Part shown: positions 1 to 19,302 of the stretch, piece after piece | How the letters are laid out: every line of letters begins with the position of its first letter | Numbering within the stretch: the first letter of the stretch is position 1 | From: a virus | Direction: 5' to 3' (one strand) | Virus record (IMG/VR): IMGVR_UViG_3300036846_000255 | Span: 1-19,577 of that record | DNA: 19,577 bases | Made by a program: the position numbers and the translations under genes | Notes under the pieces: generated by a model | Database searches by the model: none | What the model saw: only the letters and a program-made list of their open reading frames with translations | Told to the model about the DNA's origin: nothing

Positions 1-99
1 ATAGAGGTGAACCCCTCGTTAACCTAGACCCCCCACCCCAGTTAACGAAAGTTCTCATGAAACTCTAATTAATTTCTAACCGTATTCACAGCACCTGGG
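1..99. repeat. Left inverted terminal repeat (ITR), perfectly matching core
   Basis: I compared nt 1-99 base by base with the reverse complement of 19479..19577 and they are identical. The first mismatch is at nt 100 (g versus t). The repeat sits exactly at the window edges, as expected for a complete linear protein-primed genome. Confidence 0.97.
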
Positions 100-250
100 G
101 AGTTCTCATGAAACTCTAATTAATTTCTAACCGTATTCACAGCACCTGGGTTCTCATGAAACTCTAATTAATTTCTAACTGAATTCACAGCACCTGGAAA
201 GTTCTCATGAAACTCTAATTAATTCCTAACTGTATTCACAGCACCTGGGG
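51..250. repeat. Left subterminal tandem array of four ~48-nt iterons
   Basis: The unit gttctcatgaaactctaattaatttctaaccgtattcacagcacctgg starts at 51, 102, 150 and 201, giving spacings of 51/48/51. Copies 3 and 4 carry variants (ctgaattc in copy 3; aattcctaactgtattc in copy 4). Each unit contains the palindromes TCATGA and AATTAATT. Confidence 0.95.
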
Positions 251-259
251 TGTTTATCA

Positions 260-268
260 TGGTATACT
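260..268 (+). promoter_or_regulatory. Extended -10 promoter (TGgTATACT) immediately inside the left repeat array
   Basis: TG at 260-261 and TATACT at 263-268. No good -35 lies at 17 bp; TTCACA at 235-240 is 22 bp away. It is followed by the TAATTCA leader shared with the next two promoters. Confidence 0.55.
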
Positions 269-298
269 TAATTCATCAAGTAAAGGGGGAACATAAAA

Positions 299-490
299 AT
301 GTATGAAAACACTAAAGAAGAGTTAGAGAATAAACTAGAAGAAGTTATGGAAATAATTGATAATTTAAGTGCTGAAAGAACATACTGGAAAGAAACAGCT
401 GAACAATATAAAGAAGAACGTGATATTATTACAGAAGCATACGAGAATTTAAAAGAGTCAATCTTCAGTGAACCTAACAAAGATGAATAA
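299..490 (+). CDS. Hypothetical, very acidic 63-aa protein; first gene at the left end
   Basis: ORF with the SD-like sequence aaaggggga 7 nt upstream. By my count the residues are 17 E, 3 D, 6 K and 2 R, and heptad-like spacing suggests a helix or coiled coil. I recognise no family. Confidence 0.7.
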   Translation: MYENTKEELENKLEEVMEIIDNLSAERTYWKETAEQYKEERDIITEAYENLKESIFSEPNKDE

Positions 491-519
491 AATTAATTTA
501 AAAAACTTAAACAAAAGTG

Positions 520-548
520 TTGACAACAAAAACACCACATACTATACT
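520..548 (+). promoter_or_regulatory. Consensus sigma-A-type promoter
   Basis: TTGACA at 520-525, a 17-bp spacer and TATACT at 543-548. An A-rich upstream tract (aaaaacttaaacaaaagtg) may act as an UP element. Confidence 0.8.
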
Positions 549-578
549 TAATTCATAAGTTAAGAGGAGGAATTACAA

Positions 579-725
579 ATGAAAGAAATGAGTTATTCAG
601 ACGGGATGAAAATGTACAATCACTTGAAAGTAAACTTTTGTAATGATGTAAGGTTAGTGAAATGGGACAATGTAACACATATTTATGTAGGACGTAGACA
701 TTTAGATAGTTTTCTAAATAAATAG
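579..725 (+). CDS. Hypothetical 48-aa protein (below the ORF-track cutoff)
   Basis: ATG at 579 is preceded by AGAGGAGG at 8-nt spacing and by its own consensus promoter. Manual translation gives MKEMSYSDGMKMYNHLKVNFCNDVRLVKWDNVTHIYVGRRHLDSFLNK, ending at TAG 723-725. Confidence 0.6.
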   Translation: MKEMSYSDGMKMYNHLKVNFCNDVRLVKWDNVTHIYVGRRHLDSFLNK

Positions 726-769
726 TTAAATCAAACTAAAAAATAAAACTAAAAAAATCAACAAAACTA

Positions 770-798
770 TTGACACTGGTTTCTATAAATGGTATACT
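770..798 (+). promoter_or_regulatory. Consensus sigma-A-type promoter with extended -10
   Basis: TTGACA at 770-775, a 17-bp spacer, TG at 790-791 and TATACT at 793-798, followed by the TAATTCA leader. Confidence 0.8.
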
Positions 799-868
799 TA
801 ATTCAAGGTTAAGGAATAACCTAACAAACAAAAAACTAAAAACTTAAACAGTAGAGGAGAAATATATT

Positions 869-1228
869 ATGAATAACGTAACATTACTAGGACGCGTAAC
901 TAAAGACTTTGCAGGTACTAAAACAGATAAAGGGTTAGTAATCGCTCGTAACAGCTTAGCAGTTAACCGACCTACAGAAGGTGCAGACTTCATCAACATT
1001 GTAGCATTTGGTAAAACAGCAGAGACACTAGGTAAGTTCGTTAAAAAAGGACAAAGAGTTCTTATCCAAGGACACATCCAAACTGGTTCATACGAGAAAG
1101 ATGGTAAATACGTATACACTACAGATGTAGTAGTTGACCGCTTTGAATTTATCGAATTAGCACCTAAGAAAGAAGAAGCAGAAAAAGAAGAAGTAGAAAA
1201 AGATGAAATGCGAGACCTACCATTCTAA
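869..1228 (+). CDS. ssb: Single-stranded DNA-binding protein, bacterial OB-fold type
   Basis: The N-terminal ~100 aa follow the bacterial SSB pattern (VTLLGRVTKD..., LAVNR..., ADFINIVAFGKTAE...FVKKGQ...QG.IQT.SYEKDG....T.VVV). An acidic tail ends in DLPF, matching the bacterial SSB C-terminal tip (DDDLPF/DDDIPF). SD is GAGGAG. Confidence 0.9.
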   Translation: MNNVTLLGRVTKDFAGTKTDKGLVIARNSLAVNRPTEGADFINIVAFGKTAETLGKFVKKGQRVLIQGHIQTGSYEKDGKYVYTTDVVVDRFEFIELAPKKEEAEKEEVEKDEMRDLPF

Positions 1229-1236
1229 CGAAAACA

Positions 1237-1261
1237 GAGATGAGAGCTTCGGCTCTCTCTC
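1237..1261 (+). terminator. Possible weak intrinsic terminator or RNA hairpin after ssb
   Basis: The sequence gagaTgagagc-ttcg-gctctctc forms a ~10-bp stem with one bulge and a UUCG loop. The downstream tract (attatctat) is only moderately U-rich. Confidence 0.35.
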
Positions 1262-1275
1262 ATTATCTATAAAAC

Positions 1276-1289
1276 TGACATATATGTCA
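1276..1289. promoter_or_regulatory. 14-bp perfect palindrome TGACATATATGTCA (candidate operator, copy 1 of 3)
   Basis: Perfect dyad located 15 nt upstream of the ATG at 1304. The same core occurs at 3864..3877 and 6257..6272. No usable -10 lies downstream here. Confidence 0.5.
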
Positions 1290-1303
1290 AAAAGGAGAAA
1301 ACA

Positions 1304-1723
1304 ATGAAAACATTAAAAATAGCTTTTATGTCTGTGTTATCAATTTTAGTCTTTATTACTTCTATGTCAGTCACTTATTTAGTATTAGAAAGGAACGAAC
1401 AACATGAACAAAGCACACCTAAAATTACACAATCGAGTGAAACTATCTCAACAATTGAAGAAACACAAACAACTACAACAGAGTCTTCATATTCAAATGA
1501 ATCAACTCAAGAAGAAGTAGTCGCTCCTTCTGTTCAACCACCAAGTACAGAAGAATACACAGTTAATAATTATTTAGGTGTTGATACTTATTCTAACTTA
1601 AATGCTGATAATTATTCTATTACACGTAATTCAGATGGAGTCAGGGGTGTGTTAATTGTTGAATCACCTTATTCAATGCAGTGGTTTTACGATGACAACA
1701 GAGGCTTAATCTACACTAATTAG
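1304..1723 (+). CDS. Hypothetical membrane-anchored protein (N-terminal TM helix, S/T/E-rich linker)
   Basis: SD is AAGGAG. Residues ~7-28 are hydrophobic (AFMSVLSILVFITSMSVTYLVL), followed by a low-complexity T/S/E-rich segment and a ~60-aa C-terminal domain. I recognise no family. Confidence 0.7.
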   Translation: MKTLKIAFMSVLSILVFITSMSVTYLVLERNEQHEQSTPKITQSSETISTIEETQTTTTESSYSNESTQEEVVAPSVQPPSTEEYTVNNYLGVDTYSNLNADNYSITRNSDGVRGVLIVESPYSMQWFYDDNRGLIYTN

Positions 1724-1734
1724 GAGGAAAACAA

Positions 1735-2163
1735 ATGTTAAAATTTAAAGAAGGACAGACATATATTTGTACGAAGGCAAACTTACCTTGGTGGACAAAA
1801 GGAAAAGAGTATAAGGTATTTTTTGATGAGCTACCTCGAGTTTTTGCAATAAAAGACAATCAAGGAACTATTTGGTATGACTATGAACTAAACGATACAA
1901 CACACAAATTCAACCTCAAAGACAATCCATTAGCAGAGAAGAGAACAACTGACTTAATTGACAACCAACCACACTACAAAAACCAAGGTATTGAACCTAT
2001 TGACTTAATGCGTAAAAACTTCTCTAAAGAAGAGTTTGCTGGATTTTTACAAGGTAATGTGTTAAAATACATGTTGCGCTACAAAGATAAGAATGGTCTT
2101 GAAGATTTAAAGAAAGCTAAGACATATCTAACATGGTTAATCGAGGAGGAAACTAATGACTAA
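1735..2163 (+). CDS. DUF3310-like phage protein with an extra N-terminal domain
   Basis: The C-terminal half shows the DUF3310 pattern as I remember it: PHY..QGIEPIDLM......F..GNVLKY.LRYK.KNG.EDLKKA..YL.WL. SD is AGGAGG. The N-terminal ~70 aa are unassigned. Confidence 0.7.
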   Translation: MLKFKEGQTYICTKANLPWWTKGKEYKVFFDELPRVFAIKDNQGTIWYDYELNDTTHKFNLKDNPLAEKRTTDLIDNQPHYKNQGIEPIDLMRKNFSKEEFAGFLQGNVLKYMLRYKDKNGLEDLKKAKTYLTWLIEEETND

Positions 2164-2614
2164 GTACAAAGTAACAGATAAATCATATGGTAACTACAAT
2201 GGTAAACTTAATTACGATTATGCTTTCGATACTTCTAAATTCAACGGGTTAGTTAGAGATACCGAAAGGTCTTTACAAGGATTAGAAAGAGCATTTAACT
2301 ATTTACCAGGAGAACACCACTTTCCTTTTAAAAAACCTATCTCTTACATTGATGCTAAAGCCTTAGTAACTGGAGCATATGTAGCTCCTATTAGAGCTAT
2401 CTTAAATCACTTCTCCGAACATTCGTCTGAGCGTAGAGCAAACAAACAAAAAGAAGTGATAGCTAAAGATGCTATGAACTCAGAATCACCTAGAGAGTTA
2501 ATCAAAGAATTAAATAAACTAAACAAACTATTTGAAAAATATGCAGACGATAAATTCAAAGGACGTCGTAAATTCGCTATCGTTGCATACAATGAATTAG
2601 GATATAACGGATAG
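2156..2614 (+). CDS. Hypothetical 152-aa protein (weak candidate terminal protein)
   Basis: SD is GAGGAGG and the gene overlaps the previous one by 8 nt. It has a basic C-terminal half (RRANKQK, KFKGRRK) and lies in the replication module. There is no recognisable similarity to phi29 p3. Confidence 0.65.
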   Translation: MTKYKVTDKSYGNYNGKLNYDYAFDTSKFNGLVRDTERSLQGLERAFNYLPGEHHFPFKKPISYIDAKALVTGAYVAPIRAILNHFSEHSSERRANKQKEVIAKDAMNSESPRELIKELNKLNKLFEKYADDKFKGRRKFAIVAYNELGYNG

Positions 2615-2624
2615 GAGGAAAACA

Positions 2625-3866
2625 ATGGGATTATTTAACAAGACACAAGAAGAAAAGTTTTTAAAATTCATCGAAAAATTTAGAAAGGAAAATATCCCCT
2701 CAAACTTTAACCAAGCTAGAGGGGTTGAAAATTTAATCAACCCAGACAATGACTACACAGTGTCCATCTCTTCACGTACGGACGGTAAGAGTTTTAACTA
2801 TATGGGTATGTTAATGGCTGTTGCTTTTGAGTTTGACTTAGGTATTCTATTCCTTGACCGTCACTACACAGTAAGACAAGCTTACATGGAAAACATCTGG
2901 GAGATAATGCACGTTATGCCACATTTCGATGAGAAAGAGTTATCATTCGAACGTAGTGATGAATACGTAACAGTTGTCTATAAAGACAAAACAATCGGTG
3001 CTATTACAGATATCAACAACAGTTCTGACTTGAAGAACCACTCTCATTTTCTAGCTAAATTCCCTATCTTGGTTTACGATGAATTCTTAACAATTGAAAC
3101 AGACTATGTTCCTTTAGAAGACAAACACTTTGAACGTATCTACCGTTCAGTTGACCGTAACGACCATATACCTCTAATTGACATCCCTAAGGTATTTCTA
3201 CTAGGTAATCCTGAGAACTTTGCTAGTCCTTTAATCGCTATGCTAGACTTGTATAATAAACTAGAGAAACACCCTATTAACACGGGTAAACATTATGACA
3301 ATATCTATCTTGAAATGTTTCGTAACGATAACCAGAATGCTAAGCGTAACTTACGTGCGTTTAAATATGCTGATAAAGGTTCTATCTCAGGTGAGTTCCA
3401 AATCAACAACACATATATTGCAAACGATGAAATAAGAGCGATGATTAAACGAGGAGGATTTAACACTTTTAACATCAAACTAGAAGAAGGTTTCTTAAAA
3501 ATCACCTACAACTTAGAAACACGTAAAACTCTAATCAGTTACATTTCATCTGTTTCTAATTATGACTTTTGCACACAAGTATCCGATAAGAAAGATGGTG
3601 TTGTATTCTTAGGAGAAACATACTTTAAAGACACTCACTTAAAATACCATGAGCGTGGTTTCTACTATTATGACAACAGCTATACTAAATCACTGATTAC
3701 AAGAGACTCATCACTCGTAGAGTTAAAAATTTGGAAGTGCGTATCTAAACATGCAATCTCACACACTGAAAGCTTATCTGATAGAATTGAAAAAGAATAC
3801 AAAGATACTTACCTTGAAAACACCTTAAAATCAATTCATAAAAAGTTTATGCTAGACAACTTCTAA
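2625..3866 (+). CDS. DNA encapsidation (packaging) ATPase, phi29 gp16-like
   Basis: Walker A-like SSRTDGKS at aa 49-56 (nt 2769-2792). Walker B ILVYDEF with D152/E153 (nt 3078-3083). The downstream segment VFLLGNPENFASPLI parallels phi29 gp16 CICLSNAVSVVNPYF. SD is AGGAGG. Confidence 0.8.
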   Translation: MGLFNKTQEEKFLKFIEKFRKENIPSNFNQARGVENLINPDNDYTVSISSRTDGKSFNYMGMLMAVAFEFDLGILFLDRHYTVRQAYMENIWEIMHVMPHFDEKELSFERSDEYVTVVYKDKTIGAITDINNSSDLKNHSHFLAKFPILVYDEFLTIETDYVPLEDKHFERIYRSVDRNDHIPLIDIPKVFLLGNPENFASPLIAMLDLYNKLEKHPINTGKHYDNIYLEMFRNDNQNAKRNLRAFKYADKGSISGEFQINNTYIANDEIRAMIKRGGFNTFNIKLEEGFLKITYNLETRKTLISYISSVSNYDFCTQVSDKKDGVVFLGETYFKDTHLKYHERGFYYYDNSYTKSLITRDSSLVELKIWKCVSKHAISHTESLSDRIEKEYKDTYLENTLKSIHKKFMLDNF

Positions 3867-3881
3867 CATATATGTTATATT
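3853..3881 (+). promoter_or_regulatory. Putative promoter in front of the polymerase gene with a palindrome in the spacer (copy 2 of 3)
   Basis: TAGACA at 3853-3858, a 17-bp spacer and extended -10 TGtTATATT at 3873-3881. The 14-bp palindrome TAACATATATGTTA (3864..3877) spans the spacer and overlaps the -10. Confidence 0.45.
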
Positions 3882-3899
3882 AGTTTGTGAGGTGAGAGT

Positions 3900-6242
3900 A
3901 TGGAATATGTAAAATATTTAGATGGCACAACTAAACAAGACATTATTAACTATTTAAACAAGAGTAAGATACACCAGTTTGATATCGACATTGAAACATT
4001 AAGCTATAACATGAATATGAGTAGAAAGAAACCTACAGCTATGAAAAGTCGTATGTTTACTTTCACTGCTTCATGGTTCGATGAGTCAGGACGTATTTAT
4101 ACAATTGCAACACCATCAGTTAAATATTTCATTGATGATTTCCTTCTCCCTTATGCTAAGAAAACAAAGGGAAAAAGCAAACGTTCTGGTTTTGCTCGAG
4201 TGGTTTTCAATGTGCACAACGGTAACAAGTTTGATAATCACTTCCTAGCGAAAGAAATACACGAAACCTATCATGCGAAATATCGTAACTGGGAAGATGA
4301 TAAAAGCAAAGTAAAAGTGAACTTAGGGAAACACATGATGAAAGGAGAAAACACAGAAAACTATATTCTAGAGAAGAGGGTAAAGGGTATGTCCCACCTC
4401 TCTTTCTCTGCTGTTATAGGTGATTTACAAATTGACACAGTTGATACAGTCATGAAAACAGGATGTGCCTTATCAACAGTCGGACAAATGCTTTTATCTG
4501 CAGGATGTATTACAGAAGATAAATTAAAAACAACTTTCGACTATGCTAAATATCATTACCAAGAAGACATGTCAGAAATTGAAGTAAACACGGAAGTATT
4601 AGACATCTTCAATTCTTTAACAGAAGAAGAGTGGGTTTATATTGCAAATGACACATACATTCTTTCATCTTTAAGAAGAGACTTTGAGAAGATTTTTCCA
4701 GGTTTCGACTATAACAAACAAACAAAAACACAAAACATTATTAATGCTTACAAAAGAAACAATACAGCTGAATATCAAATACTTGGTAAGATTACCAAGC
4801 AAAACGAAACTTCTTTAAGACCAGATGTTTACGAGGTGAACTATAGTGATTATGACGTTCAAGGTGAGAACATGGCACGTATTGTACAAAACTTTTATAA
4901 GGGTGGGTTAAACTTTTATAATCAAGATTACGTTGGTAAACTTTTAACAGGAGAGTTTATCAGTTTTGATATTAACAGTTCTTATCCATCCATTATGTAT
5001 GAGTTCCCTATGCCTTGGTTAATCAGAAACCATTACGAACACAAATGTGTTAAGAAGGTATCAACAGATTTACATGAAGAATTCACCCTTTACAAAGTAA
5101 CAAAAGAAGTTTTTAACCGTTTGTTAAGCTTACTAGGTTCTAGAGTTGTTAGACAAATGTTAACAAAATATTTCAGAAGAGAAGGTGAGTTTGTTTATTT
5201 GACTACTTGGACATTCAAAATGTTAAAAGAGAATTTTCATTTAGAAATTCCAGAAATTGAATGTGAACAATGGTATGAGTTTAGCGTAAAATATTTCGGT
5301 GCTAGAGACGCTATCACGGAGTTTTACTTCACTAAAACACAAGGAAAAGCAAAGAGTGTGGTGGAATTCGTGGATAATAATCCTATGAATATTGTCTTAC
5401 ATGAAGACCAAAAGAACGAGAAAGTATTTACAAAACCTATGATTGACATCGCTAAAGTAAATCTTAACGGTATCTATGGTGCTCCGGCTCTAAAACCTGC
5501 TTATTCAGTTGGTTATCGTGATGAAGACGGGTTTTTACACGTTGAACGTAATGGTTACTTAAATACAGAACGTAATGCTATGACAAGTGTATTCACGACG
5601 GGTGGGGCTTTATGGAGATTAACACAACCTTTACAATATTTAACAGATAAAGAGATTGACGACGCTTTTCTTTACTGTGATACAGATAGTTTATACATGA
5701 AACGTTATATTTTACCTAAACTACCTAAAGAAATGTTTCACCCGATGAACTTAGGTTCTTGGGATATTGAACACAACTTAATTACCGAATTTTATGTATT
5801 AAACCATAAAAAATATGCTTTCTATGACAATGGTATTGTTTTCCATTGCGGAGGTATCCCAGAAGACGCTTTTGATACAGATATGTCTTTCAAAGAGTTT
5901 GTAGACACACAATTCCATAAAGGGGTACAAATGCCTAACAACCGTAGTATTATGACATCAGAAGGAACAATCGTTATTTACGAAAGTAGCACTGAACTAG
6001 ATGAAGGTGGTAGTTATCCAGACCGTTATACTGATGAAGATGAATTAATTGAACAAATGGTAAAAGAAGAATTAAGAAAACAGTTGACAGATGAGGATGA
6101 TAATGATATTCTCTATATAGAATATGAGTTAGGTTCAATGTCCTTGAAAGACGTTTATCCTTTCGAGTACGAAACATCAAAAGATTCCTTGGCTGGCTTG
6201 TATTATGATTCGGGAGATATTAGAAATAATATTTCTCGATAA
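3900..6242 (+). CDS. Family-B DNA polymerase, protein-primed type (phi29 p2-like)
   Basis: Exo I is DIDIETL (D30/E32). Exo II is HNGNKFD (aa 106-112). Exo III is YIAND (Y247..D251). Motif A is FDINSSYPS (aa 356-364), motif B KVNLNGIYG (aa 519-527), motif C YCDTDS (aa 592-597, nt 5673-5690) and KxY is KKY (aa 637-639). Confidence 0.95.
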   Translation: MEYVKYLDGTTKQDIINYLNKSKIHQFDIDIETLSYNMNMSRKKPTAMKSRMFTFTASWFDESGRIYTIATPSVKYFIDDFLLPYAKKTKGKSKRSGFARVVFNVHNGNKFDNHFLAKEIHETYHAKYRNWEDDKSKVKVNLGKHMMKGENTENYILEKRVKGMSHLSFSAVIGDLQIDTVDTVMKTGCALSTVGQMLLSAGCITEDKLKTTFDYAKYHYQEDMSEIEVNTEVLDIFNSLTEEEWVYIANDTYILSSLRRDFEKIFPGFDYNKQTKTQNIINAYKRNNTAEYQILGKITKQNETSLRPDVYEVNYSDYDVQGENMARIVQNFYKGGLNFYNQDYVGKLLTGEFISFDINSSYPSIMYEFPMPWLIRNHYEHKCVKKVSTDLHEEFTLYKVTKEVFNRLLSLLGSRVVRQMLTKYFRREGEFVYLTTWTFKMLKENFHLEIPEIECEQWYEFSVKYFGARDAITEFYFTKTQGKAKSVVEFVDNNPMNIVLHEDQKNEKVFTKPMIDIAKVNLNGIYGAPALKPAYSVGYRDEDGFLHVERNGYLNTERNAMTSVFTTGGALWRLTQPLQYLTDKEIDDAFLYCDTDSLYMKRYILPKLPKEMFHPMNLGSWDIEHNLITEFYVLNHKKYAFYDNGIVFHCGGIPEDAFDTDMSFKEFVDTQFHKGVQMPNNRSIMTSEGTIVIYESSTELDEGGSYPDRYTDEDELIEQMVKEELRKQLTDEDDNDILYIEYELGSMSLKDVYPFEYETSKDSLAGLYYDSGDIRNNISR

Positions 6243-6256
6243 TTTAAACAAAAGAG

Positions 6257-6285
6257 TTGACATATATGTCAAATCATGATAAACT
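6257..6285 (+). promoter_or_regulatory. Consensus promoter whose -35 lies inside a 16-bp perfect palindrome (copy 3 of 3)
   Basis: TTGACA at 6257-6262, a 17-bp spacer and extended -10 TGaTAAACT at 6277-6285. The palindrome TTGACATATATGTCAA spans 6257..6272. The upstream tttaaacaaaagag nearly repeats the UP region of the promoter at 520. Confidence 0.8.
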
Positions 6286-6316
6286 AAGTTCATAAGATAA
6301 AGAGAGGAAGATAAAT

Positions 6317-6508
6317 ATGATTAAAGAATACAAGGTAATGAACGAACGAGTATACAAAGTGATTGCTGTAGATGAAGATGGTTATGAAATGGATTTCTTC
6401 ATTAAAGGGGAAGATTCAAATCACGCACAACACAAATTTATCAAATTAGCTCAATTCAACGATAACGGATTAACCTACAAATCAATTAAGGAGATTACAA
6501 TCATATGA
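6317..6508 (+). CDS. Hypothetical 63-aa protein
   Basis: SD is GAGAGGAAG. It is the first gene after the 6257 promoter and its stop overlaps the next start (ATGA). Confidence 0.7.
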   Translation: MIKEYKVMNERVYKVIAVDEDGYEMDFFIKGEDSNHAQHKFIKLAQFNDNGLTYKSIKEITII

Positions 6509-6660
6509 AAACTTATAAAATTACTTTTCACGACGCATGGGATGGAACAACAGGAGAAACTTATATCTTCGCACAATCTGCTATAGACGCTGAAATTATT
6601 TTCACTCAAGAAGAAGACATGTATGTAACAGTATTAGATGTACAGGAGGAAGAATTATGA
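6505..6660 (+). CDS. Hypothetical acidic 51-aa protein (below the ORF-track cutoff)
   Basis: ATG at 6505 lies in an ATGA overlap with the previous stop, with AAGGAG 10 nt upstream. Manual translation gives MKTYKITFHDAWDGTTGETYIFAQSAIDAEIIFTQEEDMYVTVLDVQEEEL, ending at TGA 6658-6660, which overlaps the next ATG. Confidence 0.6.
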   Translation: MKTYKITFHDAWDGTTGETYIFAQSAIDAEIIFTQEEDMYVTVLDVQEEEL

Positions 6661-6863
6661 AAAAAGTACTAGGATTTATCATGTTTTCAGTGGTTGCAAT
6701 ACTAACCATAGGTATTAACTTAGTCGGAATACAATTCTTTTATGAAGCTATTAATTATCATCTATCAGCAGATACAATATTGGGTATGTTCTTTGTAGGC
6801 ACTACCATTATAGGTTTAGATAGTTTAATGATTTGGCTTGTCTTAGAAATTAAGGAGGAATAA
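6657..6863 (+). CDS. Hypothetical small membrane protein with two TM helices
   Basis: SD is AGGAGGAAG. The hydrophobic segments are LGFIMFSVVAILTIGINLVGI and ILGMFFVGTTIIGLDSLMIWLVL. Confidence 0.7.
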   Translation: MKKVLGFIMFSVVAILTIGINLVGIQFFYEAINYHLSADTILGMFFVGTTIIGLDSLMIWLVLEIKEE

Positions 6864-6865
6864 TA

Positions 6866-6937
6866 ATGTTATCACTCGTATGGATCATGGCTATTTTAGG
6901 TTTTGTTGCTTTAGTTAATTATATAGAAGGAGAATGA
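6866..6937 (+). CDS. Possible 23-aa hydrophobic micropeptide
   Basis: AAGGAGG lies 7 nt upstream of ATG 6866. Manual translation gives MLSLVWIMAILGFVALVNYIEGE, and the stop overlaps the next ATG. It is very short, so the call is tentative. Confidence 0.35.
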   Translation: MLSLVWIMAILGFVALVNYIEGE

Positions 6938-7005
6938 AAATGATTAACAAATTAAAAGATTTTTTACATCGAATTTTAAAAACAGGAGGATTAGTGACCG
7001 CATGA
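6934..7005 (+). CDS. Possible 23-aa (or 21-aa from ATG 6940) basic micropeptide
   Basis: GAAGGAG lies upstream. Manual translation gives [23 protein letters not shown], and the stop overlaps ATG 7002 (ATGA). It fills the otherwise non-coding gap in a tightly coupled gene string. Confidence 0.3.
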   Translation: MKMINKLKDFLHRILKTGGLVTA

Positions 7006-7235
7006 ATAATAACGAACGTCGAGAGTTTCTAAGAAGGTTTTGGATTGCTATGGAAGTAATTATGGAAGAAAAACGCCTACCACATTCTAAAGTGGTGGGT
7101 AATAACACATCGCTAGCTAAAAGTCGTGAATTAAACCCCACAATTGTAAGACTTGAGTCTTTTGCCAACAACTTAGATATGGATTTTAACAAATTTATGA
7201 AAAAACTAAATGAAGAGATGGAGCTAATTAAATGA
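7002..7235 (+). CDS. Small putative DNA-binding protein (divergent XRE-like HTH)
   Basis: AGGAGG lies 10 nt upstream. The segment [22 protein letters not shown] resembles the conserved C-terminal part of XRE/Cro-type HTH domains (NPsletLlkiAkaLgvsldeL). The helix-turn-helix proper ([17 protein letters not shown]) is shorter and atypical. Confidence 0.45.
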
Positions 7236-7795
7236 ACTTGAACCCTGAATTTTTAGAAGACGCTTTGAAACCAGAAAAGAACTACATGGCGAACATGCCT
7301 GCACGTTGGGAAGTTGTATCAGTAAATCCGAACTATGAAGTTTCAGATTTAGGTGAGGTTAGAAATATTAAAACTGGACGTATTTTAAAACAGAAAGATA
7401 GAAATGGATACGCTGCTGTTAATTTATCTTATGAAGGTAAAGTGAACACCTATAACGTTCATCGTTTAGTAGCAGAAGCTTTCTTAGATAATCCAGAAAA
7501 CAAAACTCAAGTAAATCATAAAGACGAAATTAAAACAAATAATTCATTAGTTAATTTAGAATACGTAACACCTCAAGAAAATATTGAATATTCTAAAGCT
7601 ATTCAAGTAATCGGTAAAGACATTCATGGGAATATTGTAATGGAATTTGAGTCATTAACAGAAGCTGGAAGACAAGGTTACTTCCCTAACTATGTCAAAC
7701 GTTCATTTTTGTATCATGTCCCTTATAAAGGGGTATATTTTACAATCATGCCACCTAAAGCACAAGAATATAAGGAGCGTAAACTATGGCAATAA
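7232..7795 (+). CDS. Free-standing HNH homing endonuclease (NUMOD4 + HNH_3 pattern)
   Basis: The NUMOD4-like part is [29 protein letters not shown]...NGYAAVNL...VHRLVAEAF. The HNH part is [24 protein letters not shown], as in I-HmuI-type enzymes. The gene overlaps both neighbours (ATGA at 7232; 10 nt at 7786). Confidence 0.85.
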
Positions 7796-9786
7796 CAAAA
7801 GAACAATTCGCAAATGCTAAAATTGATGAGTCTTTCGGGATTTCAGATGATGTGTTAGTTAAATATGTACAAACAAGTGTTTCAGGTTCTAGGTGGTGGC
7901 GTTACTGGAAGGATGACGCTGCTAAAATTAAACAAACATTTGATATCGCAAGACAAAATGGTATGTCAGCAGCTCTCTTAGTTGTAAAAGAGAAGGTAGA
8001 AGGTGTTGGTTTTACTAACGGTGATATGGACGGGTGGGGTAACCACTTTGATCATCCAAACGCTGACCCTATGGTAGACTTAGCTAATTATGCACAAGCA
8101 ACTGTTACAGTAGCTAACTCAACAGCTTACAATCCTTCTTGGGTTGATATGGGTAACCCTGTTAACTGTGTACCTAACGGTGTTATAGCTGAAGGAAATG
8201 CAGACTTTGCTTCTACTCCTACAGGAACAATCAAACGCGCTTATGTACCAATGACAGCAGCCACAACTTGGGCTTATTATTATCCCCAAGCATTAAACGC
8301 TAGCGTAAATGGTGTTCAAACATACGGGAACCCTATTCAACAGTGTACAGATTACTTAAATGAAATGGGGGCTAAAATTACAGGTTCTGGTGGTGCTGGT
8401 GATGGTGGTACAGCTCCAGAAGGTGGAGGTAATGATGTAAAACCAGGAGAGCCAAACCAAAACAAACCTTTAGAAGGTAGTGGAACGAGTTCTTTTGACC
8501 CAACATCTATCATCGAAGCTATTCAAAAAGCGATTAAACAAATTTTAGATTTACTCACACAAAACTATTCACAAGAAAAATTATCCATTTACGGTTCTAA
8601 AACAGGTTTAATGTTTACCCAAGTAAATAAGAACTATGTTTTTGCTTATGATTTTTTCAATGATAACGTTAAATCTATCAGTGATACGTTAAGTGATGTA
8701 GTTGGTGATGAGTTACAAAACAGTGGAGCTATTCAAGATGAATTACCCAACGGTGTAAACCAAACAGTTGAAATACTCTTAACTAGAGCGTTGAAATATG
8801 TCGATAGTGAAGTTTTATATGATGAAGCCAAAGACGGAAACCCTGAAAATGGAGCGACCGATAATGCTCGTTTCATGTCTTGGTGTGTTCAAACCATTCA
8901 CCCTTCTCTAAAAGGTGCATCACATAAAGATTTTTTCAATCGTTTTAATGCTGCAGGTTATGTGAGACATCGAGGGTTATGGGCTGACATTTCTAAACAT
9001 ATCCAAATAGGGGATATTATCTGTTGTGCAGATAATTTAACAATTGATACAGGCGGTAAAGAATACTTCATCGCTTTAGGTGATGATGAATGCATAGAAG
9101 CTTACCCCTGGGAGAATGGAGAGAGAAGTAGTAAAGGTGGTAAACCTGTAGCAAAAGGAGTAGCTAAATTTAAGCTTTCTGAAAGAACTGCTTTGGGTTG
9201 TGCTGACATCGCTATTATTCGTGTATACACACCTAAAGAAGTAGAAAACGATACACCTTCAACACCAAATCCACCGTCTGGTAGTGTTAATTCAGCATTA
9301 GCTCACATTGCTTCATTTATGGGGCGTACGATCGGGTCTGGTCAGTGTTATGCCTTATGTGCTGAATTCGCTGGTGTATTAGGAGGTCCAGGACTTGGCG
9401 CAGGGACTAAGTATAGTATTTCTGGTTTAAGTGGTCAGGGGTCAACAAGTGCTGCTGCGGATATCGGTATTTGCTACAAATGGAGTGCTTATGGGTGGAC
9501 GATGATACAAAACCCTTCTTTATCACAAATCGTTCCAGGATGTATCTTAAACATTAATAGAAGTGTAAACGTAACTGAATCTATGGGTGAAGGTACTTCT
9601 GCTTGGTTTAACTGGACATCTGACCCTACTTACGGTCATACAGTTGTAGTTGAGAAAGTTAGTGGAGATAACCTTACTGTTCTTGAACAATGGGGTGGTA
9701 GCCGTCAATATACCATGAGAAACATGATGAAATATTCTGGTACTGGTGCATCGGGAATCTCAAGTATTTGTATTCCTCCTAGTTAA
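7786..9786 (+). CDS. Multidomain virion or tail-associated peptidoglycan hydrolase (C-terminal CHAP domain), phi29 gp13-like role
   Basis: The C-terminal ~165 aa show the CHAP pattern ([12 protein letters not shown] with the Cys, [10 protein letters not shown] with the His). A Gly-rich linker ([17 protein letters not shown]) follows an N-terminal ~195-aa domain, much like the gp13 domain layout. The middle region has an NlpC/P60-like outline (FMSWC ... IGDIICC) but no clear His. SD is AAGGAG. Confidence 0.7.
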
Positions 9787-9820
9787 TAAAGAAAGTGCAT
9801 CCCCCGTTTAGAATAAACGA

Positions 9821-9855
9821 AAAACAAGCCCGCTCTAGGCGGGCGTTTTTCTTTA
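9821..9855. terminator. Bidirectional intrinsic terminator between the convergent arms
   Basis: The GC stem gcccgc (9828-9833) pairs with gcgggc (9839-9844) around a 5-nt loop. It is flanked by aaaaacaa upstream and gtttttcttt downstream, so each strand reads a hairpin followed by a U-tract. Confidence 0.8.
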
Positions 9856-10695
9856 TTAAAAGCTTTTTAATCCAGAGAAGATGTCGTGCGTTGGTTGTTT
9901 GACATTACCCTTCTCATCCTGAGTGCGTCGGAAGACTACTTTAACTTTCTTACCTTTTACTTGAGAATAATTAAACTCTGCGTGTAAACCAAAAGCGTAT
10001 GTTTCGCTAACGTTCAAAGCTTTATTTACATCCTTTCTAACAATCCCTTTAGACTTTTTACGGTCAATTTCTTTTCCTTTTTCATCTAAAAGAATCGCAT
10101 AATTGTAACCACTGATTTGAGGTAGGTAAACCCAACCATCACAAATGATTTTATCACCCTGCTTCTCGAATTTATCGATACTACCTGCAGGACTTGGGTG
10201 TGGTGACCCAGCTGGAGAACTACCCATATGTTTCTTAATTTCGTTAATGAAGTAGTCTCTCGTTTTATTACCAGCACCATGAATTTCTTGTGATCGGTGA
10301 GGACATGCTGTAGAACTAAATGTGTTGTGAAGTCTTACAGTTGTCGTATTTGGTTGTAAACCGTGACGTTTTAAGATTTCGGCTGCTAATTTAATAGCTT
10401 TAGCTTCATTTGCTAAAAATTGATTTTTGTCACCCATTGATTGACAAGCCTCAATACCAATATAGTTAGCATTACCGTCTGAGTTAGCCGTATGCCACGC
10501 CATATTACCTTCATCTTCCATTTGTAGAGTGCCATCACTAGCAATATAGTAATGTGCAAAACCATTTGCTGCGTTAGCGTTTGTTACATAACCTTTATAA
10601 AAATTAACATTTGCTGCATTTGAACCAGCGTCATTATGAATGACAACTCCTTTTACCTTACCATTTCTTTTTCCTGCAATTCCTTTTGTAATCAT
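9856..10695 (-). CDS. Endolysin: N-acetylmuramoyl-L-alanine amidase (Amidase_2/PGRP type) plus C-terminal wall-binding domain
   Basis: The N-terminal domain carries KGVVIHNDAGS (Zn His) and VRLHNTFSSTACPHRS (His/Cys), as in T7-lysozyme-type amidases. A P/S/G linker (GSSPAGSPHPSPAGS) precedes an unassigned ~105-aa C-terminal domain. The gene lies directly downstream of the holin, with an ATGA overlap. Confidence 0.85.
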   Translation of the reverse strand: MITKGIAGKRNGKVKGVVIHNDAGSNAANVNFYKGYVTNANAANGFAHYYIASDGTLQMEDEGNMAWHTANSDGNANYIGIEACQSMGDKNQFLANEAKAIKLAAEILKRHGLQPNTTTVRLHNTFSSTACPHRSQEIHGAGNKTRDYFINEIKKHMGSSPAGSPHPSPAGSIDKFEKQGDKIICDGWVYLPQISGYNYAILLDEKGKEIDRKKSKGIVRKDVNKALNVSETYAFGLHAEFNYSQVKGKKVKVVFRRTQDEKGNVKQPTHDIFSGLKSF

Positions 10696-10916
10696 TTAAC
10701 TTCTTCCTCCCTAGTAAATTTTAAACTAATATTTTCAATCATTGATTTAATAATCTCAACGTCTCCCAACGCATCAGTCAGTTTTTGGATTGTTTCTTGG
10801 TAACGAATTTCACGACCATTGTTTGTTTTCATGACCCAGATGAATAATCCGATGAAGAGAGCTGCAAAACTTACTTCATTAGGGTTAGACAAAAGATTTT
10901 CTACGAATTGTTCCAT
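10692..10916 (-). CDS. Holin, single-TM BhlA/UviB-like
   Basis: It has one TM helix (VSFAALFIGLFIWVM) followed by MKTNNGRE..YQ..I..L and a charged coiled tail, which resembles the BhlA family as I recall it. SD is AAGGAGGTGA. It sits immediately upstream of the endolysin. Confidence 0.7.
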   Translation of the reverse strand: MEQFVENLLSNPNEVSFAALFIGLFIWVMKTNNGREIRYQETIQKLTDALGDVEIIKSMIENISLKFTREEEVK

Positions 10917-10939
10917 TCTATCACCTCCTTTCTCATACT

Positions 10940-10948
10940 ATTTTAACA
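10940..10948 (-). promoter_or_regulatory. Possible internal extended -10 promoter for the lysis cassette
   Basis: The minus strand reads TGtTAAAAT about 25 nt upstream of the holin ATG. There is no convincing -35. Confidence 0.25.
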
Positions 10949-10955
10949 TATCTCA

Positions 10956-12707
10956 TCAATTTATAATAGAGTTATTCATAATTGATTGAGAAAATGGGTT
11001 TGTTAAGTCTTGTCTGTTGTGCCAGAATTTAACACCTACTTGTAATAAAGCTTTGATTTGTTGCATGAATTGAGGTGCTACACCTGTTAGGTTATAGACT
11101 CCTTCAATTTGTAAGTAGTTAACAATTCTCATAGAGTCGATACGTTCAACTTTCCCTTGTTCTTCAAATTGATAACCGAATGACTTGTAGTAACGTCTGA
11201 TTTTTTCTTTTTCTCTATCGCTTGGTGCGCTTAATTTAACTGTGAAACCGAAGATATCATTAGCAATAGAGAATGCTTCTCCTCCAGATTGTGAAGATAA
11301 TGAAGGGGATGAAAGAGCCATATCTGCAAATTCTGCTTTTTGTTGACGATAGAAATTTTGTTCATCAACAATTTTACTACCAATGTTTAAGGGGTTTAAT
11401 GACCCACCTAAGATAGTGTAAGCGTCAGTAAAGACATTTGTTGCTTTCTCATTCACTGCTTGAGAATCATCTGTCATTGTACGGTTGATGTTCTTCACAC
11501 GTCCAGATAACGTGTTTGTTTCTGCTAAAGCTCTCTTGTTTGCATTTGAAGCAAGTCCTAAATTGTAGTTATCTACTAACACTGGAACTTCTGTCCAATT
11601 AGAAAAGTTTAAACTGTTGTTTAAGAAGGTTCCAGCTTTTACCTGACCCTGATCTGTTTCACCATCAGAAGCCCAGTTAAGTGGGAAGATAGAGATTTTA
11701 TTTGAATAACCAATACTTGTTACCATATGGAATTTTAATCCTGTAGAAGGTAGGAAACCTAAATCTAAATCTAGGGACTCACCAACCCAGTTATAAACTT
11801 CTAAAGTTCCGTATTCGTTACGTAAAAGATGCTTCTCGTCTACAGGGTAACCTAGATAACCCATAATTGTTTCAGGTGACCAGTTGATATCTGAAATGTC
11901 AGCATTTGCAGATGTTTTGTTATTAGCAAATTTCTTTAAGTAATCATGAGATTTACCGTTGAATTTACTTGCTTCTAAATCACCTGTATCAATCAAATCT
12001 TTAGGGATTAACATCACTGATTTAATATTCTGACCAATCCAAGCAAAATCTGTTAGAGCTGCTGAGAAGGATTTAAAATGGTCTAATTCAATTGCGTATA
12101 AACCTACTGGAGAGACGATTTTATCATATTTAACCCCTTTTGAAAGCTTAATGTTTGGTTTGTTAACCGTACCGAATTCCGCTTCTAAGTCTACTGCACA
12201 TTGAAAGACACAAATCATTTCTGTCCAGATAACTGATTTTGAATAAACATATTTCTTAGTTGTTGTTTTCAAAATGTCACTGTTGGTTCTCAATTCTGGT
12301 AAACGTTCGTTGTAAGCTGTTTGTGGTAAATGTTGACGTTTGATTGTAACATTATCTAACCCTGTTAATACATTCCCTTGAGTGAAGGTAGCTAGTACAT
12401 CGATAACGATTTGGAAAGCTGTTACCTGGTCATTAACGTATTGTGTAGCCATTACGTAGAAGAAGTAAGGTTTATTTGTAAAACCATCTACGAAACAACC
12501 ATAATTCACACCCTCAGTATTCTCATACTGAATGGGTGCATTGATTGTTAAACGATCTCTTACCATGTTGAATTGTTTCTGGAATTCTACTTTTTGGAAC
12601 TTTCGATCTAACCAGTTCTTATAAGCTGACACCGTATCGTAATGAACCGTATTATTAAAGTCATTCATCGGTGTGTTGTAGTATAAAGTAATTGTACTTA
12701 ATTTCAT
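10956..12707 (-). CDS. Tail knob / distal tail tube protein, phi29 gp9-like
   Basis: The size (583 aa from ATG 12707) matches gp9. The N-terminal pattern YFFYVMATQYVNDQVTAFQIVIDVLATF parallels gp9 WFYAFVTELEFKN..VT...FEIDVLQTW. I chose the start at 12707 because GGAGGG lies 5 nt upstream; the track's 12746 start has no SD and would overlap the previous gene. Confidence 0.75.
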   Translation of the reverse strand: MKLSTITLYYNTPMNDFNNTVHYDTVSAYKNWLDRKFQKVEFQKQFNMVRDRLTINAPIQYENTEGVNYGCFVDGFTNKPYFFYVMATQYVNDQVTAFQIVIDVLATFTQGNVLTGLDNVTIKRQHLPQTAYNERLPELRTNSDILKTTTKKYVYSKSVIWTEMICVFQCAVDLEAEFGTVNKPNIKLSKGVKYDKIVSPVGLYAIELDHFKSFSAALTDFAWIGQNIKSVMLIPKDLIDTGDLEASKFNGKSHDYLKKFANNKTSANADISDINWSPETIMGYLGYPVDEKHLLRNEYGTLEVYNWVGESLDLDLGFLPSTGLKFHMVTSIGYSNKISIFPLNWASDGETDQGQVKAGTFLNNSLNFSNWTEVPVLVDNYNLGLASNANKRALAETNTLSGRVKNINRTMTDDSQAVNEKATNVFTDAYTILGGSLNPLNIGSKIVDEQNFYRQQKAEFADMALSSPSLSSQSGGEAFSIANDIFGFTVKLSAPSDREKEKIRRYYKSFGYQFEEQGKVERIDSMRIVNYLQIEGVYNLTGVAPQFMQQIKALLQVGVKFWHNRQDLTNPFSQSIMNNSIIN

Positions 12708-12717
12708 GTTTTCCCTC

Positions 12718-13572
12718 CTATGTGATACTAAATGTGATAGGTTCAACGAAAATAGGTGTTGTTCCAGATTTTGAAGCGATAGAGCAAACCCCTGTAGGTC
12801 TTACATAAATTTTTGCTGCATCTGTTTGTGTAGCACTTTGACCTGGTAGCAAGTAGTGATATTCGTACGACCCAGATGCTGGAGGTCTGAAACCTTCCGG
12901 CAAAGTGAAGCAATCCCCAACACCGTTATTCGTTGTGTTATGAGCAAGTGTGCCACGCATGTATACAATACCGTTTTGACGTTTGACTTGAATGGTTTTT
13001 GAAGCTGTGAACGGTTCAATCATTGTAACATCTCGCCATGTAGTATCAACTACTTTAGTTTCTAATGTATTTAACCTTGTGTTTTGTGTCGCGTTGATAG
13101 ATACTTGAGTGTTTATTTCAGTATCAATTTTTGAGTTTGCTGTTGTGATTTGTTGGTTAATTTCATCGAATTTAGCTGGATAGGTCATTACTTCAGTTTC
13201 TAAATCACTTAAACGGATGTTAATACCTGTAAAACTTCCTTCAATGTTACTCACCCGATTAATTAAATCGTTTAATGCTACAGTCATTTCTTCTTTATTA
13301 GCTTTTGTATCATTTAATTGAGTACAGTAATCAACAAGTTCTTGAATTTGTTGTTTGATTACATCATCCTCAGTTTCTAACAATTCAACTCTAGTCAATA
13401 ATTCGTTAATAATCTCTTCATAATTATCAAATAGTAATTCTTTGTACACGTTCTTGATTTTAATAAAAATACGACCAGCTCTATCAGCTACCATGTCTAA
13501 TTCTTTACTAGTGTTAAGAGGAAGGGACTCAATGTCCCTAACCTCTAATGTTTTTCTGACGAAATCTTCCAT
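12718..13572 (-). CDS. Tail fibre / receptor-binding protein (coiled-coil stalk plus C-terminal beta head)
   Basis: About 170 aa of heptad-rich sequence (ELLTRVELLETEDDVIKQQIQELV..., NIRLSDLETEV..., NTRLNTLETKV) precede a C-terminal domain with the W.DV...G.VYMRG.L....LPEGFRP pattern common in phage fibre tips. I set the start at 13572 because GAAGGAGAG lies 7 nt upstream. Confidence 0.65.
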   Translation of the reverse strand: MEDFVRKTLEVRDIESLPLNTSKELDMVADRAGRIFIKIKNVYKELLFDNYEEIINELLTRVELLETEDDVIKQQIQELVDYCTQLNDTKANKEEMTVALNDLINRVSNIEGSFTGINIRLSDLETEVMTYPAKFDEINQQITTANSKIDTEINTQVSINATQNTRLNTLETKVVDTTWRDVTMIEPFTASKTIQVKRQNGIVYMRGTLAHNTTNNGVGDCFTLPEGFRPPASGSYEYHYLLPGQSATQTDAAKIYVRPTGVCSIASKSGTTPIFVEPITFSIT

Positions 13573-13573
13573 A

Positions 13574-14362
13574 TTAATACTCTCCTTCAATTCCAGAAAT
13601 TGTAAATCCTGTATCAGATGTGAAAGTTGCGCTACCGTCTGGTTTATGAGTGACTAAACGACATTCATCATATTTCAACACGATGTTGTCTCGTACCATG
13701 CTTAACTTCATTCGTACTTGGTAGGACTCATCAATTGTTCCGGCTACAGCTGAGAACATCAATTGTGGGTTATCAACTGCAGGCACTTGAACTCTAAACA
13801 TCGTACCTAATCCTTCAATTGTGAAGATCAATGAACGGAAGCGGCGTGTAGAAACAGCTAAGTTCATGTTTTGACCTACAGAAGCTGCTGTGTCTCCTTT
13901 CTTCCAAAGAATAGATACCTGTGGAATTCGTTTCCAGATAAGTGAGTTGTTGTTACCCCCACCACTACCTGTATTGTTTGATGTGTTTAAATACCATAGA
14001 GATCCTGACTTTTGAATAGTCATAAGGTAAGTCTTACGTCGGTTATCCTCACCCCATACTTTCATTGTAATCAAGTCACCAGGTACAGCATCGTCAGGGA
14101 CGGGTACTTGGTCATCCCATGAGTAAACTGTTGCGTACGTGCCAAAGGGTAAATCCCAAATACTATACTTTTCATTTAAGTAATTGTCTTTGTAAGCATG
14201 TCCATGTGCTTGACGAAAAGCGTTTGAACTCATTAATCCGTTATTCAATTCTGTTGCTAGCATGTGTGGGTTCGTACCATCACCATCTGAGTGACTACCG
14301 AACTCTTTAGCTAGTTTATTAACAGCATTTTTTAATTTTAAAATCTCTTCATTTGTATTCAT
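13574..14362 (-). CDS. Second tail fibre / appendage-like protein
   Basis: The short N-terminal helix and HMLATELNNGLMSSNAF resemble the A..aGlMS motif of phage fibres. The remainder is beta-rich with a G/N loop (NTGSGGGNNN). It lies in the tail module and its SD is AGGAGG. Confidence 0.55.
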   Translation of the reverse strand: MNTNEEILKLKNAVNKLAKEFGSHSDGDGTNPHMLATELNNGLMSSNAFRQAHGHAYKDNYLNEKYSIWDLPFGTYATVYSWDDQVPVPDDAVPGDLITMKVWGEDNRRKTYLMTIQKSGSLWYLNTSNNTGSGGGNNNSLIWKRIPQVSILWKKGDTAASVGQNMNLAVSTRRFRSLIFTIEGLGTMFRVQVPAVDNPQLMFSAVAGTIDESYQVRMKLSMVRDNIVLKYDECRLVTHKPDGSATFTSDTGFTISGIEGEY

Positions 14363-14372
14363 GTCTTTCCTC

Positions 14373-15806: not shown

Positions 15807-15819
15807 TTATTTCTCTCCT

Positions 15820-17452: not shown

Positions 17453-17474
17453 GTAGTAACCTCCTATTTAATTG

Positions 17475-18647: not shown

Positions 18648-18648
18648 A

Positions 18649-18813
18649 TTATTCTGCTCCTCCTACGTTGTGGATTTTGTTTTCGTACTCATCACGTGAT
18701 GATGGGTCAATGCTCATTTCTGGTGTTAATTGTGGTGTTTTGTCAAACTTAATATCGCTTCCAGCTCCTTTAGTGAAAGACTTAAGTTCGTGTGCTTGTA
18801 AAATTTCTTCCAT
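18649..18813 (-). CDS. Hypothetical 54-aa protein between the scaffold-like gene and the capsid gene (below the ORF-track cutoff)
   Basis: ATG 18813 has AAGGAGAG 7 nt upstream. Manual translation gives MEEILQAHELKSFTKGAGSDIKFDKTPQLTPEMSIDPSSRDEYENKIHNVGGAE, with its stop 1 nt before the capsid ATG. Confidence 0.55.
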   Translation of the reverse strand: MEEILQAHELKSFTKGAGSDIKFDKTPQLTPEMSIDPSSRDEYENKIHNVGGAE

Positions 18814-18826
18814 ATTATTTCTCTCC

Positions 18827-19153: not shown

Positions 19154-19296
19154 TAAAACACCTCCTAAAAATAAATTGAGCAGTTTAACGTCATGTTGTA
19201 CCATACTTGCTCAGGACGTGTATGTAAGAGAGAGGTTTATCAAGTAAAGGTTAGTCACTAACGATGAGTGCTGTTTGGTTTAGTACCTCTCTCACT
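19154..19296 (-). other. Long (~140 nt) structured 5' leader of the structural operon
   Basis: The region between the predicted transcription start and the scaffold ATG holds a 9-bp long-range stem: gagagaggt at 19228-19236 pairs with acctctctc at 19285-19293. This stem encloses a 13-bp dyad, GTTAGTcACTAAC (19250..19262). A second 5-bp helix (acgtc/gacgt) lies nearer the SD. Confidence 0.4.
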
Positions 19297-19302
19297 AAAA
19301 TA

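Follow-up and report, generated by a model that had tools for sequence, protein, structure and literature searches.

A three-copy palindromic operator and a candidate helix-turn-helix autorepressor in the early arm of a Minhovirus-like Enterococcus podophage

The stretch of DNA analysed here (the window, 19,577 bp, positions 1 to 19,577 of IMG/VR record IMGVR_UViG_3300036846_000255) is the complete linear genome of a small protein-primed podophage, Minhovirus-like and with Enterococcus as host, and the region under study, an operon of very small genes headed by a palindrome-bearing promoter, is the middle of its rightward (early/replication) arm. The original prediction had taken this operon for an anti-defence locus, in which unrelated micro-proteins are followed by a small helix-turn-helix (HTH) autorepressor. 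Our analysis shows that the small-gene operon shares the palindrome with other gene blocks, and favours a reading in which the 77-amino-acid (aa) HTH protein encoded there would be an autorepressor similar to Cro and to the controller (C) proteins of restriction-modification (R-M) systems, governing a three-site regulon of early and replication units. On the basis of sequence comparisons and a structural model, we give this reading a probability of about 0.55. The features discussed are listed in Table 1.

The 10-bp core of the palindrome, ACATATATGT, is found at exactly three places in the genome (1278, 3866 and 6260), against 0.02 copies expected, and none of 200 shuffled sequences reached three. 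All three copies are located at junctions between gene blocks: before the gene that follows the one for the single-stranded DNA-binding protein (SSB), in the DNA polymerase promoter and in the promoter of the small genes. The operator consensus is T(G/A)ACATATATGT(C/T)A. Syntenic copies of the three sites are present in four metagenomic relatives (L015-L018) and in the Minhovirus phage Zip (L019, taken as reverse complement), and sites 2 and 3 were also found in L021, a more distant relative represented by an incomplete contig. Across seven genomes, including these six, all 30 of the 30 core positions are invariant, as against 55 of 150 flanking ones. The rest of the genome yielded no further conserved copy, and this includes the leftward arm with the promoter region near 19330. 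Taken together, the three copies and their positional conservation are strong evidence for a functional cis-element. Each site is a single dyad and not a pair, with the exception of Zip, in which a degenerate tandem half-copy (ACATTTATGT, at 5356-5377) lies two bases upstream of the site 3 core, so that site 3 could be a double site in Minhovirus proper.

The promoter of the small genes scores 10 out of 12 and has an extended -10 element. Promoter-like sites as a whole show no excess over chance in this genome (62 observed versus 71 expected); the one at 6257 lies in the intergenic gap between the polymerase gene and the small genes, a position kept in Minhovirus, Copernicusvirus and the metagenomic relatives. 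Much of the architecture originally described was borne out, namely the near-consensus promoter TTGACA-17-TGaTAAACT at 6257-6285, the perfect 16-bp palindrome in which its -35 element is embedded (6257-6272) and the linkage of most of the small genes by ATGA stop/start overlaps, present at five of the six junctions (6505, 6657, 6934, 7002 and 7232, counting that with the HNH endonuclease gene), the 68-aa and 23-aa genes being separated by a 2-nt gap. What did not stand is the claim that the chain ends in the HTH gene, given that the HNH gene overlaps it at 7232 and the tail-spike lysin gene in turn overlaps the HNH gene at 7786. The first strong terminator downstream of the promoter is the one at 9828-9844, with no convincing one earlier, and the transcription unit runs past the HTH gene through the HNH and lysin genes to 9828.

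The candidate binder of these sites, the 77-aa protein, matches the PHROG family phrog_10028 (E = 1.5e-23, residues 3-75 on profile positions 2-74 of 80), which consists of 41 clusters, all of 76-82 aa; every contig retrieved was of the small Enterococcus podophage type. An AlphaFold2 model from an alignment of 37 sequences had a predicted local distance difference test (pLDDT) score of 96.7, and the top 50 Foldseek matches in the PDB were all XRE-type HTH proteins. Best among these were the R-M controller proteins C.BclI and C.Esp1396I, over the full length and with TM scores of 0.66-0.69, followed by ClgR, Stl, DdrO and PrgX, while a library of viral structures returned the homologues from Zip and Idefix and then HTH_XRE, Cro/CI and immunity-repressor proteins. 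The model and its structural neighbours thus support an XRE-type HTH fold, in line with the earlier description of the protein as a divergent member of this type. No other early phage protein with a recognisable sequence-specific DNA-binding domain was found.

A counterpart of this arrangement was found in Copernicusvirus. The genomes of ZEF1, Idefix, Efmus4 and Ef7.2 contain no copy of ACATATATGT, and each has exactly three sites of the form GATATATATATC (allowing at most one mismatch), where 0.09 are expected in ZEF1. They occupy equivalent places: one is in a left-end promoter spacer, another (TGATATATATATCA) directly precedes the ribosome-binding site (RBS) of the gene that follows the SSB terminator, and the third is in the spacer of the post-polymerase promoter. 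Relative to TGACATATATGTCA, GATATATATATC carries one symmetric change (C>T / G>A) in both half-sites. Between the genera, the 77-aa homologues share about 33% identity; a G-N-N turn and an N-P-T cap are kept, whereas the putative recognition helix differs (GNNAYLCQKGxYNPT in Copernicusvirus). In L021 the identity of the HTH protein is only 53%, yet both the Minhovirus-type helix (NNITLAKNKE) and the Minhovirus-type operator are retained. Such a pattern is what co-evolution of a dimeric regulator with its operator would be expected to produce.

According to the model that we favour, the promoter at 6257 would drive, with no terminator between them, the genes for the 63-aa and 51-aa proteins, an accessory slot, the two micropeptides, the HTH protein, the HNH endonuclease and the lysin, and a dimer of the HTH protein would bind the three operators. 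At site 3, with its dyad centre near -28, binding would occlude the -35 element and bring about negative autoregulation; at site 2, with the dyad centre near -17, it would cover the spacer and the extended -10 element; and at site 1, where there is no room for a rightward promoter, it would form an elongation roadblock to read-through from the upstream early promoters. The net outcome would be a feedback-limited, coordinated dampening of early and replication transcription. In Copernicusvirus the dyad is wholly within the promoter spacer, and the presence of the operator at varying registers over core promoter elements fits steric repression, not position-dependent activation. An autoregulatory loop is plausible given a strong promoter, an inverted repeat and a small XRE-type HTH protein, and both modes of action have a precedent in C.Kpn2I, which represses a strong promoter by occlusion of the -35 element and also acts as an elongation roadblock (PMC6237814). 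That the HTH protein is the binder, and repression the effect, we infer from sequence and from the structural model.

Several points weigh against this model. No Pfam HTH model, including those of the HTH_3 clan, scored above threshold in the 77-aa family, sub-threshold matches to HTH_10 (0.0014), HTH_29 and HTH_23 being seen in a few of the 37 members; the 77-aa protein had no NCBIfam or PDB sequence match at E <= 10, and its family profile matched nothing meaningful in the PDB. The Foldseek E-values to PDB entries are modest (0.025 or worse), though the TM scores and probabilities are high. The co-variation of HTH protein and operator rests on a single evolutionary split with two states, and the change of operator variant coincides with a change of host species, between E. 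faecium and E. faecalis phages. The role proposed for site 1, which has no adjacent promoter, is a conjecture. Finally, since the lysin is a virion protein needed late and its gene lies behind the repressed promoter, repression would have to be partial or bypassed.

Table 1. Coordinates of the features discussed, in positions of the window
Feature	Position	Strand	Remarks
Operator site 1	1275..1290		CTGACATATATGTCAA; perfect 14-bp palindrome at 1276-1289; near-perfect copy of the 16-mer
DNA polymerase promoter	3853-3881	+	TAGACA-17-TATATT, promoter-like
Operator site 2	3864..3877		Perfect 14-bp palindrome TAACATATATGTTA; in DNA polymerase promoter, over spacer and extended -10
Sigma-A-type promoter	6257..6285	+	-35 TTGACA 6257-6262; 17-nt spacer; TG 6277-6278; -10 TAAACT 6280-6285
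Operator site 3	6257..6272		Perfect 16-bp palindrome TTGACATATATGTCAA; core ACATATATGT at 6260-6269; over -35 and upstream half of spacer
63-aa core protein	6317..6508	+	
51-aa core protein	6505..6660	+	Very acidic, net charge about -10; predicted beta-beta-alpha-beta
68-aa accessory protein, two transmembrane segments	6657..6863	+	Sporadic insert
23-aa micropeptide, single transmembrane segment	6866..6937	+	Own AAGGAGG RBS
21-aa basic peptide	6940..7005	+	pI 10.3
77-aa XRE-type HTH protein (phrog_10028)	7002..7235	+	Candidate operator-binding repressor
NUMOD4 + HNH_3 endonuclease, 187 aa	7232..7795	+	Coupled by ATGA to HTH gene
Tail-spike lysin (glycosidase + CHAP), 666 aa	7786..9786	+	Last gene of the 6257 unit
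Rightward arm	299-9786	+	SSB, DUF3310 protein, packaging ATPase, type-B DNA polymerase, small genes, HNH endonuclease, 666-aa CHAP protein
Bidirectional intrinsic terminator	9828-9844		Meeting point of both arms; closes + strand arm
Leftward arm	19204-9856	-	Virion and lysis proteins
Terminal repeats	1-254 and 19364-19577		Tandem copies: 4.1 left, 3.4 right

Other explanations of the palindromes were considered. They could be bound by a host regulator or by another phage protein, with the HTH protein having a different target, for instance in assisting the HNH protein; the HTH and HNH genes are translationally coupled in every case, and the operator variants track the host species, E. faecium or E. 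faecalis (bioRxiv 10.64898/2026.03.11.711020), a pattern that a host-specific factor would give as well. We nevertheless regard this as unlikely, because the HTH protein alone among the early proteins can be recognised as a sequence-specific DNA binder, its gene belongs to the operon that carries the operator, its nearest structural relatives are dimers that bind palindromes over their own promoters, and the HNH protein possesses a NUMOD4 region itself and, at its C-terminus, weakly matches an HTH DNA-binding PHROG. It is very improbable that the palindrome acts instead as an RNA hairpin (in processing, stability or translational control) or as a recombination or module-boundary sequence. It is true that site 1 is transcribed and directly precedes an RBS, that a stem would likewise survive the symmetric C-G to T-A change seen between the genera, and that every site is at a module junction; however, hairpin predictions were marginal (-3.8 kcal/mol for site 1, no hairpin for site 2, and -1.7 kcal/mol with z = -0.4 for ZEF1), sites 2 and 3 fall within core promoter elements, upstream of the expected start points, and there is no Rfam match.

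The layout of an acr/aca locus, in which the small proteins would inhibit host defence and the 77-aa protein would be a dedicated autorepressor of the anti-CRISPR-associated (Aca) type, is matched in so far as a strong promoter, an inverted repeat, small coupled genes and a small HTH gene are all present. The cluster accepts sporadic small inserts (the 68-aa gene here and in L025 and L026, others in L015, L016 and L018), L021 and phiEFM12 carry DNA methyltransferases, which are a known counter-restriction device, and the acidic 51-aa protein has a weak fold resemblance to the small inhibitors Gp2 and p56. The likeness fails where the HTH gene is not terminal, the transcription unit ending only at 9828, and where the 63-aa and 51-aa genes prove to be core genes of the clade and of Minhovirus. 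The operator is moreover shared with the polymerase promoter and the junction before a 139-aa gene, so that the regulator would control replication genes, unlike Aca, and an HTH gene conserved in both genera and always coupled to HNH and lysin genes is not a mobile acr-aca cassette. The small proteins had no match to anti-defence, anti-CRISPR (Acr) or Aca-like models in Pfam, PHROGs, NCBIfam, PADLOC or PDB sequences, no dedicated Aca library being used; the sole match in the NCBIfam and PADLOC scans was the HNH gene, as a homing endonuclease. The earlier remark that none of the small proteins matches a recognised family needs correction for the 77-aa protein, which falls in the catalogued, uncharacterised family phrog_10028. 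We consider the acr/aca interpretation improbable: an anti-defence role is unsupported for the core genes, and the sporadic cargo is what survives of the idea. Also doubtful is a wider scheme of a regulated host-takeover and counter-defence island in what is one of the smallest tailed phages, in which the 51-aa protein would inhibit RNA polymerase or uracil-DNA glycosylase, the inserts would modulate defence or exclusion, the micropeptides would be functional, and one HTH protein would time the island and replication through a co-evolved three-site regulon.

Among known regulators, the C proteins (C.BclI, C.Esp1396I, C.AhdI, C.Kpn2I) resemble the proposed repressor in size (about 77 aa), in their XRE-type helical fold, in being encoded within the operon under their control and in having a palindromic operator with a TATA-rich centre that overlaps their own promoter. 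They differ in that their C-boxes are paired, for activation and then repression, whereas the phage has a single dyad at each of three dispersed sites, one in the DNA polymerase promoter, and the sequence identity to the 77-aa protein is only 18-20%, with no Pfam HTH_3 match above threshold. There is also no linked restriction endonuclease, none being found in the window, and a methyltransferase is present only in some relatives. Aca autorepressors likewise are small HTH proteins whose genes follow other small genes behind a strong promoter that contains an inverted repeat, a likeness that predicts negative autoregulation (PMC6765145); here, in contrast, the upstream genes are core genes instead of validated or variable Acrs, the operator is shared with junctions of replication genes, and the HTH gene is followed in the same unit by HNH and tail-lysin genes. 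Lambda Cro and its relatives are small early dimeric HTH proteins that act on palindromic operators of early promoters and dampen early transcription, including their own, but the present phage, a protein-primed podophage, is strictly lytic and lacks both a CI partner and a lysogeny switch, and its operators are single dyads at three separate junctions in place of the tripartite OR/OL. Phage phi29 p4, together with p6, is also a small early protein of a protein-primed podophage, where it acts at several phage promoters to re-programme the RNA polymerase of the host (PMC11476376). Its fold is unrelated (an N-hook, not an HTH), and no p4 appeared among the top 50 structural matches or in the sequence matches. 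In addition, the sites of p4 are placed between early and late promoters that diverge, and serve to activate the late one, whereas here the leftward arm has no operator copy.

With regard to the surroundings of site 1, one side is flanked by a hairpin after the SSB gene (1242-1257) and the other by the RBS of the 139-aa gene (ATG at 1304). A near-consensus minus-strand promoter-like site at this position (TTGACA-17-GATAAT, 1290-1262) points straight into that hairpin; it is specific to the window, its -10 element not being conserved in relatives, and this reading of site 1 is probably fortuitous. The 139-aa gene (1304-1723), directly 3' of the site, belongs to no PHROG family and gave weak N-terminal matches to membrane proteins (CreD, DUF2140); its product may be a membrane-anchored replication organiser. 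As to the promoters, the strong rightward ones resemble each other beyond their hexamers, both in the window (about 263, 520-548, 770-798 and 6257-6285) and in L020 (about 115-145 and 5888-5920), sharing 'TTAAACAAAAG.G' upstream and 'T(T/A)A(A/G)TTCATAAG' in the downstream initial region, which suggests a common promoter cassette. Another promoter-like sequence (TTGACA-17-TATTCT with TG, 6074-6112) is found within the 3' end of the polymerase gene, in a region whose similarity to the real promoter region (6247-6281) is 71% over 35 nt.

The two genes directly downstream of the promoter at 6257, encoding the 63-aa and 51-aa proteins, are syntenic in Minhovirus with 50-65% identity and, judging from sequence, are vertically conserved core genes of this genus and not variable anti-defence cargo. 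The 63-aa protein is 89-97% identical in close relatives and 50-52% in Minhovirus, and its family matches the syntenic Copernicusvirus 68-aa family (profile probability 87%, E = 4.5e-6), so it is probably present in that genus as well; for the 51-aa family this is possibly the case, its match to the syntenic 57-aa family being weak (probability 41%, E = 2.8e-4). Only two real representatives of the 51-aa protein were found among 1.84 billion proteins, and the profiles of both families gave nothing meaningful against PDB sequences. The suggestion that the two proteins are diverged paralogues was not upheld, there being no BLASTP alignment and an hhalign probability of 0.6%. The AlphaFold2 model of the 51-aa protein (pLDDT 88.6) has weak PDB neighbours in T7 Gp2 (TM score 0.73), the Firmicute RNA polymerase epsilon subunit/YkzG (0.69) and the phi29-family uracil-DNA glycosylase inhibitor p56 (0.5-0.6), all with E >= 0.14, and ribosomal proteins score similarly. 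Gp2, YkzG and p56 share with it a length of about 50 aa, a strongly acidic character and the beta-beta-alpha-beta order, and p56 is an early protein of protein-primed phages, but there is no sequence similarity to any of them. By our own reasoning, a Gp2-like shut-off of the host RNA polymerase would be self-defeating for a phage without a polymerase of its own, and we treat the modelled resemblance as a lead only.

All six small open reading frames (ORFs) described in the original prediction are present, and hydropathy agrees with two transmembrane segments in the 68-aa protein and one in the 23-aa peptide; the basic peptide has to be redefined, since its conserved start is at 6940, giving 21 aa instead of about 22. 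An alternative start at 6934 would give 23 aa. Upstream of the second ATG, at 6940, there is a GGAG at good spacing, both here and in all relatives. The 68-aa gene is not present in L005, L006, L015-L018 or Minhovirus, and homologues were limited to two clusters (87-91% identical) among 5.8 billion proteins, the cluster looked up occupying the same slot in L025 and L026. A function of its product as the phage holin is unlikely, since a BhlA-type holin and an amidase endolysin are encoded together on the minus strand. A 28-nt stretch in its second transmembrane segment (6807-6834) is 71% identical to one in the micropeptide gene (6893-6920), which could reflect a partial duplication or a chance match of hydrophobic codons. 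Both micro-ORFs lack counterparts in Minhovirus proper. In six related loci the 23-aa micropeptide is kept as a peptide of 24-25 aa, with 13, 4 and 18 variable sites at the first, second and third codon positions, and the 21-aa peptide is conserved with 6, 1 and 10, respectively, a substitution pattern like that of translated sequences. The GG codons of the 21-aa ORF are the RBS of the HTH gene, whose start overlaps the stop of this ORF (ATGA), and this arrangement probably couples translation of the HTH gene to translation upstream.

In all relatives, those of Minhovirus and those of Copernicusvirus alike, the HNH gene is found at this position and is coupled to the HTH gene, which points to vertical inheritance and not to a homing endonuclease that moved recently. 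The 666-aa protein is homologous to SHEF14 ORF11, an experimentally characterised tail-spike lysin (bioRxiv 10.64898/2026.03.11.711020). Further small inserts in the cluster occur at other junctions, with genes of 54 and 74 aa in L018, 55 aa in L015 and about 62 aa in L016, and the cluster is a hotspot for sporadic small inserts. In L021 a C5-type DNA methyltransferase gene (4946-5656) directly follows the operator-bearing promoter, and in phiEFM12 (L003) the gene for a methyltransferase of a different type (2251-2808) follows the HNH gene in the rightward unit.

The termini of the genome consist of a perfect 99-bp inverted terminal repeat followed at each end by 48-51-bp tandem repeats, which are presumably linked to the replication origin or to the terminal protein. 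The DNA polymerase is about 83% identical to those of the E. faecium phages Zip, IME199 and SHEF14 (Rountreeviridae, Sarlesvirinae, Minhovirus) and about 58% identical to that of the Copernicusvirus phages, which infect E. faecalis. Near-identical DNA was absent among GenBank phages apart from one 80-nt match, and given this negligible similarity the window represents a new species-level relative. Closer relatives are contigs of about 19 kb in public metagenome assemblies, with 77-aa proteins 78-94% identical; a scan of IMG/VR with the 77-aa protein gave no match. Phi29-like phages are expected to use a packaging RNA (pRNA), and an Rfam scan of the window detected neither a pRNA nor any other RNA family.

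No description of these genes, promoters and operators, or of transcription control in Enterococcus Rountreeviridae, was found in the searchable literature, and to our knowledge p4/p6 of phi29 is the only worked-out model for protein-primed podophages, one unrelated to the present system. What is new here is the putative three-site operator regulon of an uncharacterised phage HTH family. Since Enterococcus Rountreeviridae phages are therapy candidates against vancomycin-resistant enterococci, the map of accessory-gene insertion points in a 19-kb genome is of use for engineering, as may be the operator/repressor variants of the two genera, which would constitute a natural orthogonal pair. The analysis also flags two conserved micropeptide genes that standard annotation misses. 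The defined operator (or TGATATATATATCA in Copernicusvirus) and the candidate 77-aa repressor together form a directly testable circuit, one that would limit early and replication transcription in these phages.

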